64,000 bases of DNA from Nannocystales bacterium. Its GTDB lineage: Bacteria > Myxococcota_A > Polyangia > Nannocystales > Nannocystaceae. The notes beneath the pieces are model-generated. The model saw nothing but the letters and a program-made list of their open reading frames with translations. It was not told the origin of the DNA and searched no databases. The position numbers and the translations under genes were made by a program. The first letter of the stretch is position 1, and every line of letters begins with the position of its first letter. Below, one piece after another: positions 1,857 through 54,571 of this stretch. The stretch is taken from contig JBOEGF010000002.1 in assembly GCA_050633305.1 (NCBI GenBank), forward strand, positions 185,624 through 249,623. Reading direction: 5' to 3'.

Positions 1857-4400
1857 CTACAACCGCGGATCCACCGGTTCGCTCTCGAGTGCAAGCACCC
1901 CGAACACACACTCATGGACGCGCCACAGCGGCTCGCGTTCGGCGAAGCGGTACAGCCCCTCCAGGCCTAACGCGAACTCCCGAATCGCCAGGCCGCGCTT
2001 GGACGACAGGCCTCGTGCGCGCAGGCGTTCGACGTTGTCGGGTGCGGTGTACTCCGGCCCGTAGATGATCCGGAGGTACTCCGGGCCCCGGCATTTCAGA
2101 GCGGGCTGAACGAGGCCACGCTTCCCCCGAACGATCCATTGTTCGGGCTTGATCACCATGCCCTCCCCGCCCTTGGCGGTGAGTTCCTCCCACCACGCTG
2201 TCGCTTCAGCTCGTGCGCCCTCGTCGGCAAGCTCGATGACCTTGTACGGCGTCGAGACGAAGACAGGATCGTGCTCTGCCAGGCGCCCGAGCGTGTCCAT
2301 GTGCCAGACGTGGGATTCGTCGAAGTAGGTCTTGCCTTCCGTGGCCAGGAGGTGGAACGGGGCCAGCCTCACGTCGGCGATGCTGTCGGCGGTCCAGCAG
2401 TAGCGACGCCAAGCGGCGGAGTACCCCTCGACCATCTCCCTTCGAGCCCGGAAGCGCTCGAGAAGCTCTCCGGAACCGCGATCGGTTGCTGCTTGGAGGC
2501 TGGACAGGACCTCGTCCAACGCAGCCTTCGCGGCGGAGCCGACCGCAGCGTACTGAGTCCGCAGGAGTTCGATTGCCTTGAGCGACCATGGCATGAGCTC
2601 AGCGTCCAGGCAGACCCAGTCGGTGCCGAGTTCCTCCCACAGGCCGGCCTTCTCGAAGGCCGCGGCGAGCCGGCCGACGAGCTCCGCCTCGGGCTCGTCG
2701 CTGGCGAAGAACGGCCGTCCGGTCCGGGTGTAGATGACCCCCTGCTTGCCGTCGCCGACGCCGAACCGGGCCTGAGCGGCTTCGACCGTGCGGGCGACGA
2801 CAGCGACGGCGCGAGAGCCCATGTGCTTCTCTTCGCACACCACGCGCTCGACACCGTTCGAGGCAAAGTAACCGAGGGCTTCCTGTGGGCGCTCCAGCAG
2901 ATCGACGTCCGAGGGAGCGGTCTCAGCCGGCGACATCGTCGGGGGCAGGTAGATGAGCCAGCGCGGGTCGACGGCGAAGCGGCTCATCACTTCCAGGGCC
3001 GCGACCGCGTTCTCCTCCCGGATCGTGACGGTATGCCGCACCCGGGTGTCGACGATCCGCTTGCCGGTCACGTCGGCGACATCCAAGACGTTGGCGGGTC
3101 GCTCGTCTCTGTGTGCGGTGCCCAGCGGCGCTGCGGGTTCGTAGTGGGTCTCGTGGGCGTCGACCTGAACGAGCTCTCGCTCCGGGTATTGCAGGGCGGT
3201 GAGCTTGCCCCCGAAGACGCAGCCCGTATCGATGCAGATGGTCCGGTTGATCCACTCGGCCTCCGGTACCGGGGTGTGGCCGTACACGACCATGGCCCGG
3301 CCTCGATATTCGGAGGCCCAGTCGTAGCGCACAGGAAACCCGAACTCGTCGGTTTCACCATTGGTCTCGCCAAACAAGCAGAACGAGCGAACCCGACCCG
3401 ACGCGCGCCCCTGGTACTCCTCCCGCAGTCCGGCGTGCGCCACCACGAGGCGCCCGTCGTCGAGGACGTAGTGGCTGACGAGTCCGTTGATGAACTCGGC
3501 GACCTGCTCGTGAAACTCCTCCGGCTCCCCGGAGAGCTGTCCGACCGTCTCCGCCAGACCGTGGCTCAGGCGAACGTTCTTGCCTCGGAGTTTCTTGAGG
3601 AGCTTGACCTCGTGGTTGCCGGGGATGCAGATCGCGGCTCCGGAGGCCACCATTGACATCACCAACCGAAGTACACCGGGGGAGTCGGGGCCGCGGTCCA
3701 CGAGATCGCCAAGGAACACCGCCCTGCGACCCTGGGGCGGCTTCACAGCGGGTTCCTCCCGGCTTCCGGTGATCTCATAGCCAAGCAGGCCGAGCAGCTC
3801 TCGGAGCTCGTCGTAGCAGCCGTGCACGTCCCCGATCAGGTCGAACGGGCCGCTCTCTTCTCGCTTGTCGTTCCACAGCTTCCGGCGAGAAATCGTGACC
3901 GCGTCGACCTCCTCGACCGAATCGAGGATGTGGACTCGGGAGAATCCCTCGCCCTTCATCCCTCGCAGACCGCGACGGAGCTGGCTGTGCTGCTGCTTGA
4001 CAACCCGGATTCCGAAACTCCTGTCGTCTCTGGACTCGTTGCGTTCTCCCGCAACCTTCGGCGGAACGTTGAGGACGATCACCACCGCGAGACAATCATG
4101 TTGCCGGGCCAGTTGGACGAGACCCTTGCGGGCTTCGGGCTGGACGCTGGTGGCGTCCACAACCGTCAGAAGCCCACGGGACAGGCGCTTGCCGGCGATG
4201 TAGTGAAGGACGTCGAAGGCATCGCCAGTCGCCTGCTGGTCGTTCTCGTCGTTCGACACGAGGCCGCGGCAGAAGTCGGACGAGACGACCTCGGTCGGCA
4301 GGAAGTGCTTCCGCGCGAACGTCGACTTCCCGGCACCTGACACGCCGACGAGCAGGACGAGGCACAGCTCCGGGATCTCGAGCTTGGTGTCCTTGGTCAT
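1857..4400 (-). CDS. pnkp: Polynucleotide kinase-phosphatase-ligase (bacterial Pnkp) of the Pnkp-Hen1 RNA repair system
   Basis: 847 aa. N-terminal P-loop GVSGAGKS, central metallophosphoesterase motifs (GDVHG, GDLVDRG, GNHE, GHTP, DTG) and C-terminal adenylyltransferase EEKHMGSR, ending ESEPVDPRL. Overlaps the hen1 stop. Confidence 0.96.
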   Translation of the reverse strand: MTKDTKLEIPELCLVLLVGVSGAGKSTFARKHFLPTEVVSSDFCRGLVSNDENDQQATGDAFDVLHYIAGKRLSRGLLTVVDATSVQPEARKGLVQLARQHDCLAVVIVLNVPPKVAGERNESRDDRSFGIRVVKQQHSQLRRGLRGMKGEGFSRVHILDSVEEVDAVTISRRKLWNDKREESGPFDLIGDVHGCYDELRELLGLLGYEITGSREEPAVKPPQGRRAVFLGDLVDRGPDSPGVLRLVMSMVASGAAICIPGNHEVKLLKKLRGKNVRLSHGLAETVGQLSGEPEEFHEQVAEFINGLVSHYVLDDGRLVVAHAGLREEYQGRASGRVRSFCLFGETNGETDEFGFPVRYDWASEYRGRAMVVYGHTPVPEAEWINRTICIDTGCVFGGKLTALQYPERELVQVDAHETHYEPAAPLGTAHRDERPANVLDVADVTGKRIVDTRVRHTVTIREENAVAALEVMSRFAVDPRWLIYLPPTMSPAETAPSDVDLLERPQEALGYFASNGVERVVCEEKHMGSRAVAVVARTVEAAQARFGVGDGKQGVIYTRTGRPFFASDEPEAELVGRLAAAFEKAGLWEELGTDWVCLDAELMPWSLKAIELLRTQYAAVGSAAKAALDEVLSSLQAATDRGSGELLERFRARREMVEGYSAAWRRYCWTADSIADVRLAPFHLLATEGKTYFDESHVWHMDTLGRLAEHDPVFVSTPYKVIELADEGARAEATAWWEELTAKGGEGMVIKPEQWIVRGKRGLVQPALKCRGPEYLRIIYGPEYTAPDNVERLRARGLSSKRGLAIREFALGLEGLYRFAEREPLWRVHECVFGVLALESEPVDPRL

Positions 4401-5791
4401 CGGGAAAACACTCCCATCTGAGTCGGAGCTCCGAGTTCGGGATCAACCGGGCCAACGGGCTCGAAGTCCACGTCGTAGCCATGGCGCTCGGCGACCCCGC
4501 GAGCCCACGCCTCGAATTCAGCGCGGGTCCACTCGAAGCGATGATCTCGGTGTCTCAGCTTGCCTTCAGGCAAGGTCTCGAACCTGACGTTGTACTCGAC
4601 GTTGGGCGTCGTCACGACCACACAACCGGGGCGCGCGGCCTCGAAGAGAACGTGCTCGAAGGCGGATAGGCGCGTCGAGTCGATGTGCTCGATGACCTCG
4701 ACCGCGCAAGCCCCATCGAACTCAGCGAGGCGCTTGTCTCGATACGTCAGGGACCCCTGAATCAGCTCCAAGCGTGCTTTTTGGCGCTCGCTGAGTTCGT
4801 CCACATGGAGGCGGGCCTTCGCCCGCTCCAGCGAACTCATCGAGACATCCATGCCCACGATCCGCTCGAACGTCTTGTCTCGAACCAGCTCCCGCAGAAG
4901 CTTGCCCTCGCCGCAACCCACGTCCACGATCCGGCGGACGCCGTTGCGGCGCAGCGCGGACAGCACCGCTTGCATCCGCTGCTCGTTGAGCGAAAGCCCC
5001 TTTTCGAGCTGCTCCTCTTCGCGACGCGTCTCTCCGTCCGTCGTTTCAGGCTCCAGCTCGCCCTCATCGGCGAGGCGGGCGAGCGCTTCTGCGGCCAACG
5101 ACCGCCGGTGCTTGAGGTACCTCTGTGCAATCTGCTCCCGTTGTGGGTGGGTGGCCAGCCAGCCCTCGCCTCGGGTGAGCAGCTTCTCGATCTCCTCGCG
5201 GCCGACCCAGTAGTGTTTGCTGTCGTCGAGCACCGGAATCAGAACCGTCAGGTGACGGAGCAGATCCTGGAGCCGTTGCGTGCCGCGGAGGCGGACGGTG
5301 CAGTAGACAGTATTGCCCCACTGAGGGAAGTCGGGATCCAGCTCGTGACGCTCGACTTCGAGTTCGTATCCCAAAGGCCCAAACAGCGCCTCCAGAAGCT
5401 GTTCGCCACCTCGTGTGGGGAGAACCGCGAGCTTGGCTTCCAGCGGGATCGCCTGCTGGGCAAGCTCGGGGCGCTCACGACTCCGCCCGCCGAGGGCCTG
5501 ACCAAAGATTCGCCCGATCGCGACACTGAGAAACGACGACGCCACGTAGGGACGGTCGTTGGTGTACTGGCTCAAGGCGAACGCCTCGCCGCCTTTCGGT
5601 CGCCGAACCAACCCAATCGGATCCACGTCGAGCAGCAGCGCAGCCGTGCACCGCTCCTCGCTCGCCTCCGGGTAGTAGACGTGGCCCTTCCCAAACGAGA
5701 GCTCGAAGCTCTGTGTCCGCGCAGGATTCTTCCCGAGCAAGTAGCCCAGGTCAGTCGCGGGTTGGTGGGTGGTGGTGATCGTCAGGAGCAT
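4397..5791 (-). CDS. hen1: 3'-terminal RNA ribose 2'-O-methyltransferase Hen1
   Basis: 464 aa. Hen1 N-terminus MLLTITTTHQPATDLGYLL...YTNDRPYVASSFLSVA, SAM motif DVGCGEG, EVIEH, TTPNVEYN and RHRDHRFEWTRAEF. Confidence 0.96.
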   Translation of the reverse strand: MLLTITTTHQPATDLGYLLGKNPARTQSFELSFGKGHVYYPEASEERCTAALLLDVDPIGLVRRPKGGEAFALSQYTNDRPYVASSFLSVAIGRIFGQALGGRSRERPELAQQAIPLEAKLAVLPTRGGEQLLEALFGPLGYELEVERHELDPDFPQWGNTVYCTVRLRGTQRLQDLLRHLTVLIPVLDDSKHYWVGREEIEKLLTRGEGWLATHPQREQIAQRYLKHRRSLAAEALARLADEGELEPETTDGETRREEEQLEKGLSLNEQRMQAVLSALRRNGVRRIVDVGCGEGKLLRELVRDKTFERIVGMDVSMSSLERAKARLHVDELSERQKARLELIQGSLTYRDKRLAEFDGACAVEVIEHIDSTRLSAFEHVLFEAARPGCVVVTTPNVEYNVRFETLPEGKLRHRDHRFEWTRAEFEAWARGVAERHGYDVDFEPVGPVDPELGAPTQMGVFSR

Positions 5792-51920: not shown

Positions 51921-53198
51921 TCATCGTGTCTCCGGGTAGCCGGATCCAGTGCGTGCCGACGAAGAAGCGTAGCCCGCAGCCCCGGACTCCCGACCAACGG
52001 CGGGCTTGAGAACACCCGCTCGGATCAGCCGCCGCACGAGGACTCGCTTCGATTTTGGCGTGACCGCGCCGGGTAGTTCTCCGACAGAAAACGGGCCCGA
52101 CGCATCAGCGATGAAACGAAGGGCCGAACTGACCTGCCGTGGAGCCCGGATGGTGGCCCCGGGCTCGCTCCCCGGCCACCGCAGAAGAACGTGGTCCCCG
52201 GTCGACTCCAAGGCGCACTGCACCCCCGCACGCTTGATCACCCGCGTCTCATCGTCCACCGTCGTCTCTTGTGCCATCGCGGTGTCGAGCTGGCGATCGG
52301 ACAACGCGACGTCGGCGATCGTGCTTCGTTCATAGAGGGCAGCGAGCGCATCGGGGTCGAGCACGTCTGCACAGCGACGAAGGAGTCGCTCCGCTTGCTC
52401 GGCCCGTCCCTTGGGGTCGAGCGACACGGAGCGACGGAGCTCGGGGTCCGACTGCGCAACCTCGCGCACCGTTTCCGCGAGCAACTCATGCCACTGCAAA
52501 CGATGCACACCGATCGTCAGATGGAGCGACTGCACCCCTTCGGTGCGCACCTCATGCACCGCACCGCGCGGCAAGTAGAGCATGTCCCCGGGCGTGAGCA
52601 GGTGGTCCGCCGTTGCCTCTTGCGTCCCCTTCGACTGCTCATACGTCGTCTCTCGCGGACGCATGGGCAACTGTTCGGCCTGGCCGAAGAGCCTCCAACG
52701 CTTGCGGCCCTCAACCTGCAGGATAAAGACATCCATGTAGTCCCAGTGGCGGCCAAGGCCTTGGGCGTGCTTGGGCGTGAGGTACAGCCCAATGTCCACG
52801 CGCGCGCGAAAGGCCTGTGCCAAGTCCCGGGCCAGGCGCCCCAACGGCCGAAACTGTGTATCGACCGCATACGCAGCCGCGGTGTCTCCGCTCAGGTGTC
52901 GCTCGCGAACCCAGCTCGCGATCGCGCCGTCGCGTTGCCGACGGCCGAAGCCCGGCGTGGCTCGGAACAGAGGGGGGGGGATCCGCTCTCCGTTCCGGAA
53001 GATCCCGTAGCTCTCGGCGTCGCTGAAGAATCCCCGCGCCAGAAGGTCCTCCACGTCGTCGAGGCTGACCAGTCCCGCGAATCGGTCCGCTGCGCCCGCC
53101 GAGTGCAGCGGCTGCTTCTCGAGGTGAGTCTCGACAAACGACTCTACGGAGAGCGGAGCGAGCAATTCTTCAGGGGTTAGCGTGGCGCGAGGAGACAT
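51921..53198 (-). CDS. JmjC / cupin-4 2OG-Fe(II) oxygenase (YcfD/RoxA/NO66-like) with C-terminal winged helix
   Basis: LLAPLS...F......K.PL, LYLTP...QG...HWD..DVFILQ.EG.KRW, L.PGD.LY.PRG..H and SLHLT.G; C-terminal VRRLIRAGVL. Start ATG 53198 or TTG 53234. Confidence 0.92.
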   Translation of the reverse strand: MSPRATLTPEELLAPLSVESFVETHLEKQPLHSAGAADRFAGLVSLDDVEDLLARGFFSDAESYGIFRNGERIPPPLFRATPGFGRRQRDGAIASWVRERHLSGDTAAAYAVDTQFRPLGRLARDLAQAFRARVDIGLYLTPKHAQGLGRHWDYMDVFILQVEGRKRWRLFGQAEQLPMRPRETTYEQSKGTQEATADHLLTPGDMLYLPRGAVHEVRTEGVQSLHLTIGVHRLQWHELLAETVREVAQSDPELRRSVSLDPKGRAEQAERLLRRCADVLDPDALAALYERSTIADVALSDRQLDTAMAQETTVDDETRVIKRAGVQCALESTGDHVLLRWPGSEPGATIRAPRQVSSALRFIADASGPFSVGELPGAVTPKSKRVLVRRLIRAGVLKPAVGRESGAAGYASSSARTGSGYPETR

Positions 53199-53237
53199 TG
53201 GCGGAAGGGCTTCCTTGGGGAACGAGTCAAACAAGTG

Positions 53238-53261
53238 CGTGGCGGTCGCGGGACCGCCACG
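53238..53261 (-). terminator. Perfect 10-bp GC-rich stem-loop between the peptide gene and the JmjC gene (attenuator or mRNA-stabiliser)
   Basis: CGTGGCGGTC-GCGG-GACCGCCACG; no strong U-tract. Confidence 0.65.
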
Positions 53262-53284
53262 ACACGAGAGGAGGGATCCCGCCT

Positions 53285-53482
53285 CTAAATGTGCAGGGGG
53301 TTGCCGTCCCAGTCGTGCACCGACAGAGGACCCGGGAGACGGACTCTGCCCGGAACGATCGGCGTGGTTCCAGCCGAGGCACCGCCTACCGCCGATTCCA
53401 GCATGTCCTCGGTAAGCTCGAAGAGCCCCTGTTCGTTGCTATCGCCACCAGAGGGGGTCGTGTCATTACGTTTCTTCTTCAT
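53285..53482 (-). CDS. Putative RiPP precursor peptide with double-glycine leader
   Basis: 65 aa. Leader ends LFELTEDMLESAVGG (ELxxxxLxxxxGG), followed by the 31-aa core ASAGTTPIVPGRVRLPGPLSVHDWDGNPLHI. Confidence 0.75.
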   Translation of the reverse strand: MKKKRNDTTPSGGDSNEQGLFELTEDMLESAVGGASAGTTPIVPGRVRLPGPLSVHDWDGNPLHI

Positions 53483-53556
53483 CGGTTCTGTAGAGTCACC
53501 ACTCGATCGATTGGATCACGACAAAGCTCAAAAAACGTTGGGATTAGAGAGCCCAG

Positions 53557-53570
53557 CCCCCCCCCCCCCC
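53557..53570. repeat. C14 (G14 on the coding strand) homopolymer tract
   Basis: 14 consecutive C in an AT-richer segment 75 nt upstream of the peptide ATG. Confidence 0.9.
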
Positions 53571-53854: not shown

Positions 53855-54571
53855 TCAGATCCCGCAGACGAGGAATCTTTTGTTGTCGCAATGCGTGCCT
53901 TGGCACTGCACGCCCTGAATCACGGTACCGACCGGCGCAAGAAACGGACCGCTGTTTTCTTCTGAGAACCACGCACTCAGAATGCACCGGTCCGGGTCGG
54001 TCAGGAACCCGGGCGACGGGCTGCACTCGATGCTGATGTCGTCGCAGTACGACCCCCTGCAGTCGATGCCCGTCATTTTCTGGTCCGCATTGCACACGTG
54101 GCTCGTCTTCACGAACCCAGATGCGATTCCTGGAGGCGGGCCAACCTCGAACCAGTCCGAGAAACCATCGATTGCCGGCGGCACCGAGCCGCCGTAGCCG
54201 TGGCACTCGATGCGGACGTTGTCGCAGTAGTGGCCTGAACAGTCGAAGCCAGTGACGGCCTCATTGACCCCGCACTGCGATGCCCCTGGCGTCTCTTCCG
54301 AGTGAAACGGGAGGAACGAGAACGCTTGAGGATCACCTTTCGCGGTGAATTCCAGCGGGCGCGACCGGTCACCGACCAGTTCTTCCTCGGGCTCGGCGAG
54401 CACCACGTCGAGAAACTCGTCGGGGATTTCGTCGGCAACGGCCTGTGCTTCAGCCTCGATGTCGACGTCATCCTCCGAGTCGCAGCCGACGGGACCGACG
54501 ATGGCGACTGCGAGAGTGAGCGCCGCGAACCGGAGAATGCGTGCGAAAGATGGAAGCTGTGGTTGGGTCAT
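53855..54571 (-). CDS. Lipoprotein with three Cys-rich internal repeats
   Basis: VGPVGC lipobox; three repeats ending C.G.(Y/H)CD(N/D). Confidence 0.75.
   Translation of the reverse strand: MTQPQLPSFARILRFAALTLAVAIVGPVGCDSEDDVDIEAEAQAVADEIPDEFLDVVLAEPEEELVGDRSRPLEFTAKGDPQAFSFLPFHSEETPGASQCGVNEAVTGFDCSGHYCDNVRIECHGYGGSVPPAIDGFSDWFEVGPPPGIASGFVKTSHVCNADQKMTGIDCRGSYCDDISIECSPSPGFLTDPDRCILSAWFSEENSGPFLAPVGTVIQGVQCQGTHCDNKRFLVCGI

Follow-up and report, generated by a model that had tools for sequence, protein, structure and literature searches.

Does a small open reading frame (ORF) with a double-glycine leader, situated just upstream of a JmjC oxygenase gene, encode the substrate of that enzyme, or is it a chance neighbour of a housekeeping gene? 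The question is raised by a locus in contig JBOEGF010000002.1 of a Nannocystales bacterium (assembly GCA_050633305.1; genome G000, 11.0 Mb, 66% G+C), from which a stretch of 64,000 nucleotides (nt; positions 185,624 to 249,623), here called the window, was analyzed. The small ORF of 65 amino acids (aa; P0002) occupies 53285..53482 on the reverse strand and lies upstream of, and co-oriented with, the oxygenase ORF (P0001), which shares this strand and terminates at 51921. An initial annotation, made from the DNA letters, had described it as a 34-residue leader followed by a 31-residue Cys-free core, located 50–86 nt upstream of the enzyme gene, and had proposed that the two genes form a minimal pathway for a peptide that is made by the ribosome and modified after translation (RiPP); its coordinates were reproduced here. 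The width of the gap depends upon the start codon of the enzyme, either ATG at 53198 (86 nt) or TTG at 53234 (50 nt). The ATG is preferred because each of the six orthologues, one of which is extended at its N-terminus, has a Met at the aligned position, and it gives an enzyme of 425 aa at 51921..53198 on the reverse strand.

Comparison across genomes indicates that the pairing of peptide and oxygenase is a real, conserved two-gene unit. It is very likely that the peptide is the substrate of the adjacent oxygenase in some form, and on balance we find it probable that the unit is a minimal RiPP cassette, in which the oxygenase binds the leader via a C-terminal winged helix and beta-hydroxylates a conserved tail of the core, which would be released by a peptidase-containing ATP-binding cassette (ABC) transporter (PCAT) encoded elsewhere. 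A protein search returned six proteins at 57–81% identity to P0001, after which the next relatives drop to 35%, and the seven enzymes form a single branch in a quick tree of 34 rows (Shimodaira-Hasegawa-like approximate likelihood ratio test, SH-aLRT, 100). Seven matching peptides were found for these seven enzymes, four of them added by searches with the peptide alignment. All three loci read as DNA, namely the window, L029 (the same DNA as L010; genome G020) and L028 (genome G450; on the same contig as G468:C585), carry the peptide gene upstream of the enzyme gene on the same strand at a distance of 86, 96 or 105 nt, as the initial annotation had anticipated for close JmjC homologues. For the other four pairs adjacency is presumed from agreement between the enzyme and peptide records in longest-contig size (6952, 4693, 25080 and 1575192). 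Pairwise identities of the enzymes correlate with those of the peptides (r 0.785; 33 of 5040 permutations were equally high), a correlation that backs the pairing but reflects shared descent and is not proof of co-evolution. No third ORF is common to the three loci at E 1e-6 and the flanking genes differ, in agreement with the two-gene extent originally suggested.

Among 72 genomes of the family, strong peptide matches (E <1e-28) and strong enzyme matches (E <1e-220) fall within the same three genomes, while 10 others contain distant enzymes only (best E 4e-53). Genome G021 gave a weak match to the peptide profile (E 0.0018, positions 25–52) and was left out of the count of three. Six other genomes of the genus of G000 (72–94% complete) contain no strong match to peptide or enzyme, and G000 is the only one among 401 sampled genomes of the phylum with an orthologue. 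The carriers besides G000 are two relatives whose records are labelled Myxococcota and Deltaproteobacteria. The cassette occurs in unrelated neighbourhoods in two genera of the family. Scanning contigs with a single enzyme sequence returned nothing, scanning with an alignment returned L028, L029 and one weak match, and a metagenome scan returned eight distant loci and no clade member.

This distribution bears upon an alternative in which P0001 would be the housekeeping YcfD/RoxA orthologue that hydroxylates an Arg of uL16 and the upstream ORF would be there by chance. P0001 does belong to the same Pfam family (PF08007, E 2.4e-30), and distant relatives are automatically labelled ‘L16 Arg81 hydroxylase’. 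However, an orthologue present in 3 of 72 family genomes and in one of the 401 from the phylum does not resemble a housekeeping gene, the fold and sequence are nearer to NO66/MINA53 than to YcfD, and the reading frame of the peptide is conserved, start and stop included. Nor is there a conserved neighbour at the three loci, whereas the proteobacterial RNA-linked group adjoins mnmA and purB (PMC2938197). We regard the housekeeping explanation, which the initial annotation had named among the outcomes that would refute its own, as largely refuted and very improbable.

Pairing with a peptide is not general among distant JmjC genes at a flank of about 1.5 kb, because a Gly-Gly-like small ORF was found within that distance in only 6 of 48 such loci, some of which are duplicates and one of which has its match antisense. 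As separate observations, small Gly-Gly-leader ORFs with unrelated cores adjoin distant JmjC genes at L086:1267-1446, L089:2750-2935 (G468) and L059:2764-3198 (G430), and at L011:1480-4149 (G050) a distant JmjC gene of the ribosomal oxygenase (ROX) kind is divergent from a Nif11 precursor gene (PF07862) and a radical S-adenosylmethionine (SAM)/SPASM gene.

Within the seven-row peptide alignment conservation is bimodal, concentrated in a leader box and in the C-terminal tail, with a Pro/Gly-rich linker of variable length and sequence in between. The leader (residues 1–34; 53381..53482, reverse strand) ends in ...FELTEDMLESAVGG, and all seven peptides carry the box F-x-L-T-x-x-M-L-x-x-x-x-G-G, with F21, L23, T24, M27, L28, G33 and G34 invariant. 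The core (residues 35–65; 53288..53380, reverse strand) consists of the variable linker and then the conserved tail (residues 55–65; 53288..53320, reverse strand), which is followed directly by the stop codon and is the predicted modification site. In the tail V55, H56, W58, D59, G60, H64 and I65 are invariant in all seven, and its full form at the C-terminus is V-H-x-W-D-G-[N/H]-[P/W]-x-H-I, residue 62 being Pro in three peptides and Trp in four. The aligner also flagged P44 as invariant, to which no weight was given as it lies in a low-complexity stretch. The initial annotation had listed candidate targets in both an RVR segment and the end of the core. The latter is upheld by the conservation of the last 11 residues; the RVR arginines and the Pro-rich linker are not conserved, and RVR was rejected as a modification target. 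Arg as such is excluded because it is not conserved, and the core holds no conserved Ser, Thr or Arg either. Codons of residues common to two loci differ synonymously in about one third of cases (10/28, 10/28 and 9/26). The conservation pattern is that expected of a RiPP, with precursor and modifying enzyme conserved together and both leader and core constrained.

The leader would also fit a transporter of the PCAT type, for which recognition is reported to rely upon hydrophobic residues at −4, −7 and −12 (PMC10885120). Leu occupies −12 and −7 in all seven peptides, forming an L(X)4L motif, and −4 is Ala or Val in six and Thr in one, so that by sequence these positions agree with the rule. A strict leader pattern, composed after inspection of the peptide, has 2 matches among the 56,171 ATG-initiated ORFs of 30–120 aa in G000, and a looser pattern has 27; together with the conservation of the peptide next to the enzyme in other genomes, this speaks against a chance ORF. 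Neither Pfam (at E 1) nor NCBIfam contains a family that the peptide matches, and no second copy of the core was detected in G000, where the next match of a profile search has E 2.6. When 1.84 billion representatives were searched with a profile, the sole matches were four members of the peptide family and one leader-only match, a cyanobacterial-type repeat protein. Neither of two familiar precursor types applies. Lanthipeptide hallmarks are absent, there being no Cys in any of the seven cores and no lanthionine synthetase among 63 window ORFs scanned, and the long-leader type of Nif11 and nitrile hydratase leader peptide (NHLP) precursors was not matched (a leader of 34 aa against >70 aa, and no Pfam family at E 1). 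The ESM Atlas model of the peptide has a predicted local distance difference test score (pLDDT) of 0.32, with feature matches all <0.9, and provides no usable structure for the tail.

In its model (pLDDT 90.7) the enzyme is a ROX-fold oxygenase of the NO66/MINA53-like kind, consisting of a JmjC domain, a helical segment and a winged helix. Over its whole length it matches NO66 with Z 30.3 (382 residues; root-mean-square deviation, rmsd, 3.8), MINA53 with Z 26.9 and YcfD with Z 19.9, and the template modelling (TM) score by query is 0.70–0.73 to NO66 against 0.50–0.51 to E. coli YcfD. The JmjC catalytic domain (residues 125–239; 52482..52826, reverse strand) retains Tyr139 and Lys166 and contains the HxD...H triad that had been read as intact at the outset; by ATG numbering this is His151, Asp153 and His215, invariant in 107 of 107 aligned relatives, and the enzyme would be dependent upon Fe(II) and 2-oxoglutarate (2OG). 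Aligned with MINA53, Tyr139 corresponds to Tyr167 and Gly230 to Ser257, residues which, with their NO66 counterparts, hydrogen-bond the substrate His (PMC9994133). Several pocket residues are particular to the clade. Gly137 is Asn in 99 of 100 outside relatives, and by offset equals Asn326 of NO66, which contacts the residue that follows the target His (PMC4556315); Met155 is His in 96 of 100; Trp152, Tyr110 and Asp135 are likewise clade-specific. The pocket has thus been remodelled, and a His target cannot be taken for granted.

These pocket changes, particularly Asn to Gly137 and His to Met155, also bear upon the possibility that the enzyme is a sole maturase that does more than hydroxylate, either by desaturation (for example to dehydro-Trp, formed directly or through loss of water) or by an oxidative His/Trp cross-link. 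A single enzyme has been retained with a seven-residue invariant motif although the enzymes have diverged to 56–63% identity, and the beta-hydroxy-Trp made by MppG of Moorena producens readily loses water (10.64898/2026.10.04.756588). However, the characterized relatives in the cited literature are all hydroxylases and the iron triad is canonical, and a general Trp-Trp link is impossible because residue 62 is Pro in three peptides and Trp in four. We consider such chemistry unlikely, and hydroxylation remains the preferred outcome.

If the tail is hydroxylated, which residue is the target can be suggested only tentatively. NO66 and MINA53 both hydroxylate the first His of an H-x-H pair (PMC9994133). 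By analogy with these substrates His56, the first His of H-x-aromatic, is the foremost candidate, if a tentative one. Trp58, by comparison with MppG, is the next single candidate, doubtful if taken alone, and a similarly doubtful standing is given to His64 or residue 62, while Asp59 or Asn/His61 seems unlikely. Four columns of the enzyme alignment split three enzymes against three according to whether residue 62 is Pro or Trp; this co-variation was set aside as uninformative, as the quick tree cannot separate it from ancestry.

The NO66 site on Rpl8 reads Gly, Asn215, His216, Gln217, His218, Ile219 (PMC4556315). The peptides lack the N-H-x-H substrate motif of NO66 and have instead H-x-W and G-[N/H]-[P/W]-x-H-I, such that the end of the tail resembles the bound Rpl8 site with Pro or Trp in the position of the target His. 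This decoy-like resemblance, together with the fact that the best fold matches are ribosomal oxygenases, would be explained if the enzyme really acted upon a cellular protein, such as a ribosomal one, with the peptide serving as regulator, decoy or docking partner. PF20514, the YcfD-type winged helix, was unmatched in the three genomes and matched in an E. coli control, and these genomes thus show no sign of a further ROX of the YcfD type. However, a decoy needs no export leader, and here the PCAT-type leader equals the tail in conservation; the core motif has no match in other G000 proteins, and the enzyme is sporadic. A role other than substrate is judged improbable.

The C-terminal winged helix (residues 310–401; 51996..52271, reverse strand) named in the initial annotation is recognized by fold in the model and not by Pfam, which did not detect it by sequence, and the likeness to a RiPP recognition element (RRE) suggested there is recovered as well. 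Folded alone (pLDDT 92.4), the domain has its best Z scores to ROX winged helices, 12.6 (MINA53; rmsd 2.1 over 86) and 10.6. Next come PqqD (7.3), PbtF (6.9), and TigE and TbiB1 (both 6.8), interspersed with unrelated winged helices at 7.6 and 7.0, and Foldseek lists after the ROX proteins the RREs of TbiB1, TbtB, TruD, LynD, PbtF, TigE and MccB. The modelled topology is four strands, a helix, a three-residue helix, a helix and a last strand, while a strict RRE is defined as three strands then three helices, with the leader bound as an extra strand (PMC12710340). PF05402 gave no match in 107 members at E 0.1. As modelled, the domain is RRE-like in fold, and it may bind the leader. All members of the clade share a WPGSEP insert in this domain. 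None of 25 aligned distant domains contains it; one of the 25 has another insert at that position. The function of the winged helix in ROX enzymes was called unclear by a 2018 review (PMC6182338).

Upstream of the peptide gene, TGATCC and CTCTAC boxes occur at all three loci, with a spacer of 17 nt in the window (TGATCC-N17-CTCTAC, 53490..53518, reverse strand), 16 in L029 and 17 in L028. The boxes end 7 nt (window) or 8 nt (L029 and L028) before the ATG, and a Shine-Dalgarno sequence is not evident. Across G000 there are 12 sites of the pattern GTGATCC-N17/18-TCTA, against 24 across 31 other spacings (8 to 40; 0–4 each), a Poisson p of about 1e-7 for a mean of 1.55 with a pattern that was chosen after seeing the loci. 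At 7 of the 12 sites a start codon lies 7–9 nt behind the motif, and the six besides the cassette start, by eye, like lipoprotein signal peptides. Sites before lipoprotein-like genes include C5:149490, C13:36007, C15:72856, C18:354334, C23:4466 and C43:150570, and one exact and two looser copies are found in a cluster of contig G000:C39 that ends in a PCAT, whose C39 domain lies at C39:24606-24992. The motif is thus described as a candidate promoter for an extracytoplasmic function (ECF) sigma factor serving a group of exported products, whose mRNAs may be leaderless. In the RpoE(Rsp)/PSPTO_1043 class the −35 box is likewise TGATCC, and the second box is CGTA (PMC5507510); that class was dropped on account of the different second box. 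A scan for sigma-70 promoters gave 0 sites. A run of 14 C is also present in the window at 53557-53570, about 40 nt upstream of the motif, with none in L028 or L029.

The spacers between peptide and enzyme genes fold as hairpins of 10–13 pairs whose stem sequences differ among the three loci; in the window the stem-loop (53238..53261, reverse strand) has 10 perfect pairs and is extendable. Whole-spacer folding z was −3.3 for the window, −2.4 for L029 and −2.3 for L028, compared with −1.35 for a control after the enzyme gene. Intergenic hairpins of such kind keep the ratio of precursor to enzyme high. A literature search on the role of intergenic stem-loops in that ratio gave nothing relevant.

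The initial annotation had stated that no protease or transporter lies in the window and that export would take place in trans. The first part holds with respect to C39 peptidases and ABC exporters, none of which were found among the 63 long ORFs of the window scanned, chosen from 73 plus neighbouring ORFs, and fails as worded, since the window also encodes an M50 peptidase (7964..), an M74 murein endopeptidase (31158..) and a dicarboxylate symporter (9082..). These three are at least 19 kb from the cassette and are unrelated to it. The genome search for C39 transporters that had been called for gave 5, 3 and 10 domain matches in G000, G020 and G450, respectively. For the ksp cluster it has been proposed that a transporter encoded in trans is used (PMC8784127), and by analogy a C39 transporter encoded elsewhere may export the cassette peptide.

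In the minimal cassette that we favour, an ECF-type promoter would drive a transcript of peptide followed by enzyme, and the intergenic hairpin would keep peptide mRNA in excess of enzyme mRNA. The oxygenase, judging from its fold and from precedent, may grip F-x-L-x4-L of the leader through its RRE-like winged helix, with the flexible Pro/Gly linker bringing the conserved tail to the iron site. In the presence of Fe(II), 2-oxoglutarate and O2, one or two tail residues would be beta-hydroxylated, and a trans-encoded C39 peptidase ABC transporter would then cleave after Gly-Gly and export a core of 25–34 residues. The tail is symmetric around Gly60, with V/I, H/H, W/W-or-P and D/N-or-H pairs, and would therefore, speculatively, suit a hairpin with two facing His. 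The product could, again as speculation, most readily be an extracellular signal or a metal-binding peptide. Only conservation, co-occurrence, gene order, fold and the presence of transporters are directly supported.

Several points weigh against this reading. Independent loci read as DNA number three only. The Z scores to RREs are all below 8, the common-fold level of the tool, and Foldseek E values to RREs are 0.15 or worse. Additionally, the winged helix alone implies no peptide substrate, because every ROX enzyme has inherited it, also those that act on ribosomal proteins. His as the target is weakened because the Ser of the His-binding network in NO66/MINA53 is Gly230 here, which is also Gly in 99 of 100 outside relatives. 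The promoter enrichment was obtained only with the strictest of five patterns, the four looser ones being without a clear peak. The cassette includes no transporter, and the C39 transporters seen in three of four G000 regions inspected (L063–L065) sit in peptide clusters of their own.

A further point against it is that characterized JmjC/2OG hydroxylases of RiPPs need or prefer a substrate first altered by another enzyme, PhaI (PMC8784127) and BipG/PbsQ (PMC12707348, PMC12257519) needing Orn and MppG (10.64898/2026.10.04.756588) preferring a lanthionine ring. If the cassette were likewise part of a longer pathway, another trans-encoded enzyme would modify the core first via the same leader and the oxygenase would perform a tailoring step, and G000 does contain several other Gly-Gly-leader clusters with MNIO (oxidative, dependent on multinuclear non-heme iron), ATP-grasp and 2OG enzymes. 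However, no third gene is common to the three loci, scattered and unrelated neighbourhoods and absence from six congeneric genomes are as expected for a self-sufficient module, and the core has neither Cys nor conserved Ser, Thr or Arg. We give this pathway a small chance, and continue to prefer the self-contained unit.

Those other clusters in G000 are recorded here in their own right. L063:8843-15685 (G000:C39) and L065:5919-13782 (G000:C14) are two PCAT clusters that resemble each other. Each encodes a short precursor of the Gly-Gly/Gly-Ala type, a small 2OG-Fe(II) oxygenase (PF13640 confirmed in L063) and two proteins of ~400 and ~490 aa; these clusters are possibly an undescribed RiPP type. 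In L063 the two proteins have no Pfam family above cut-off, and by eye one contains HDYLH and the other GRA...YLKGVGRT, the latter motif presumably recalling SelO-like pseudokinases. At L068:6874-9084 (G000:C38) two MNIO (PF05114) genes are immediately preceded by the gene of a 58-aa peptide with a Gly-Gly leader, on a contig without a C39 domain match. L064:4254-9655 (G000:C10), which we take to be a graspetide cluster, comprises a 72-aa precursor with TTLA(V/L)GEE repeats, a RimK-like ATP-grasp gene, an HlyD-like gene and a PCAT, and a second PCAT lies 7 kb away. At L067:8287-8547 (G000:C2, ~326.3 kb) a Gly-Gly-leader peptide with GCFPP repeats has no evident modifying enzyme alongside. Within the window, a lipoprotein-like ORF upstream of the cassette (53855-54571, reverse strand) has three Cys-rich repeats C-x-G-x-x-C-D-[N/D], no Pfam family and no counterpart at the orthologous cassette loci, and a Hen1 and Pnkp RNA-repair gene pair is located at 1860-5791 on the reverse strand.

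With one soluble enzyme and one 65-residue substrate, the cassette is a near-smallest test system for a bacterial NO66/MINA53-like enzyme, and the seven natural peptide variants mark essential residues. If the enzyme hydroxylates His or Trp in a linear peptide under the direction of the leader, it would be a useful engineering tool. A bolder version, a RiPP family defined by a ROX enzyme alone that combines beyond-tailoring chemistry with a leader read by the ROX winged helix, is an unlikely prospect. The chemistry in question could be an oxidative His/Trp cross-link, a desaturation or a hydroxy-His metal site on the symmetric hairpin. Were it true, the ROX winged helix would be a working RiPP recognition element, and human ribosomal His hydroxylases would be linked to bacterial peptide maturases.

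How does the cassette compare with known systems? NO66 and MINA53 (human) and YcfD/RoxA (E. coli) share with it the whole-length fold, the iron triad and Tyr139, yet act on ribosomal protein substrates; relative to NO66/MINA53 the clade enzyme has Gly for Ser and Gly for the Asn two before the Tyr, and its gene is paired with a peptide gene. Bacterial MINA/No66 genes had been assigned to clusters for peptide modification by a 2010 survey (PMC2938197). The systems that follow are compared by description. PhaI (phaeornamide/selidamide, PMC8784127) is a PF08007 Fe(II)/2OG hydroxylase whose RiPP precursor has a leader ending in Gly-Gly. However, it acts on arginase-made ornithine behind a long NHLP leader, in a cluster with LanM, GNAT and an exporter, whereas the cassette has a sole enzyme, a 34-aa leader and no conserved Arg. 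MppG (Moorena producens, bioRxiv 10.64898/2026.10.04.756588) is an Fe/2OG hydroxylase with a C-terminal RRE that is leader-dependent, with Gly-Gly; it beta-hydroxylates Trp and needs the L(X)4L motif, comparable to Leu23...Leu28 here. It differs in a Nif11 leader of 77 aa, a lanthionine-cyclised substrate and a multi-enzyme cluster (PMC11791876), and it is probably of another subfamily because its first-to-last His spacing is 88 (His141–His229) versus 64 here. BipG/PbsQ (biphenomycin; PMC12707348, PMC12257519) and CzlI (curacozole; PMC11575548) are also JmjC hydroxylases of RiPP precursors, yet are tailoring enzymes of large clusters with Orn and Phe as targets and with other precursors. In the characterized cases as cited, the oxygenase is always one of several enzymes. 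In its presumed mode of action the cassette enzyme resembles these RiPP hydroxylases; by structure it belongs with the ROX-fold enzymes, without being a YcfD orthologue. A RiPP with a beta-hydroxylated His is known as well, the enzyme being TsaJ, of a different family (10.1101/2020.12.17.423248).

PF08007 JmjC-RRE-like fusions appear as Cupin_JmjC_RRE (RREFam042, RRE-Finder) in a 2025 survey, according to which the closest bacterial homologues of eukaryotic JmjC-RRE proteins sit in RiPP-like contexts (PMC12710340); as far as its available text goes, the survey gives no account of this clade or of the core motif. PCAT-exported double-glycine peptides (PMC10885120) share the Gly-Gly end and the hydrophobic −4/−7/−12 positions, while the cassette is without a clustered PCAT, Cys, lanthionine enzyme or immunity gene. 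The novelty of the system as a whole is smaller than the initial annotation claimed, as JmjC/PF08007 RiPP oxygenases, including ones with Gly-Gly leaders, and JmjC-RRE fusions are already in print. No description of the cassette itself was found in the open-access literature. The cassette is apparently undescribed, and its most likely product is a small secreted peptide, altered by the enzyme, whose general type is familiar. That JmjC oxygenases modify RiPP precursors is an established idea; what sets this case apart is the reduction to two genes, the shortness of the leader and the motif in the tail.

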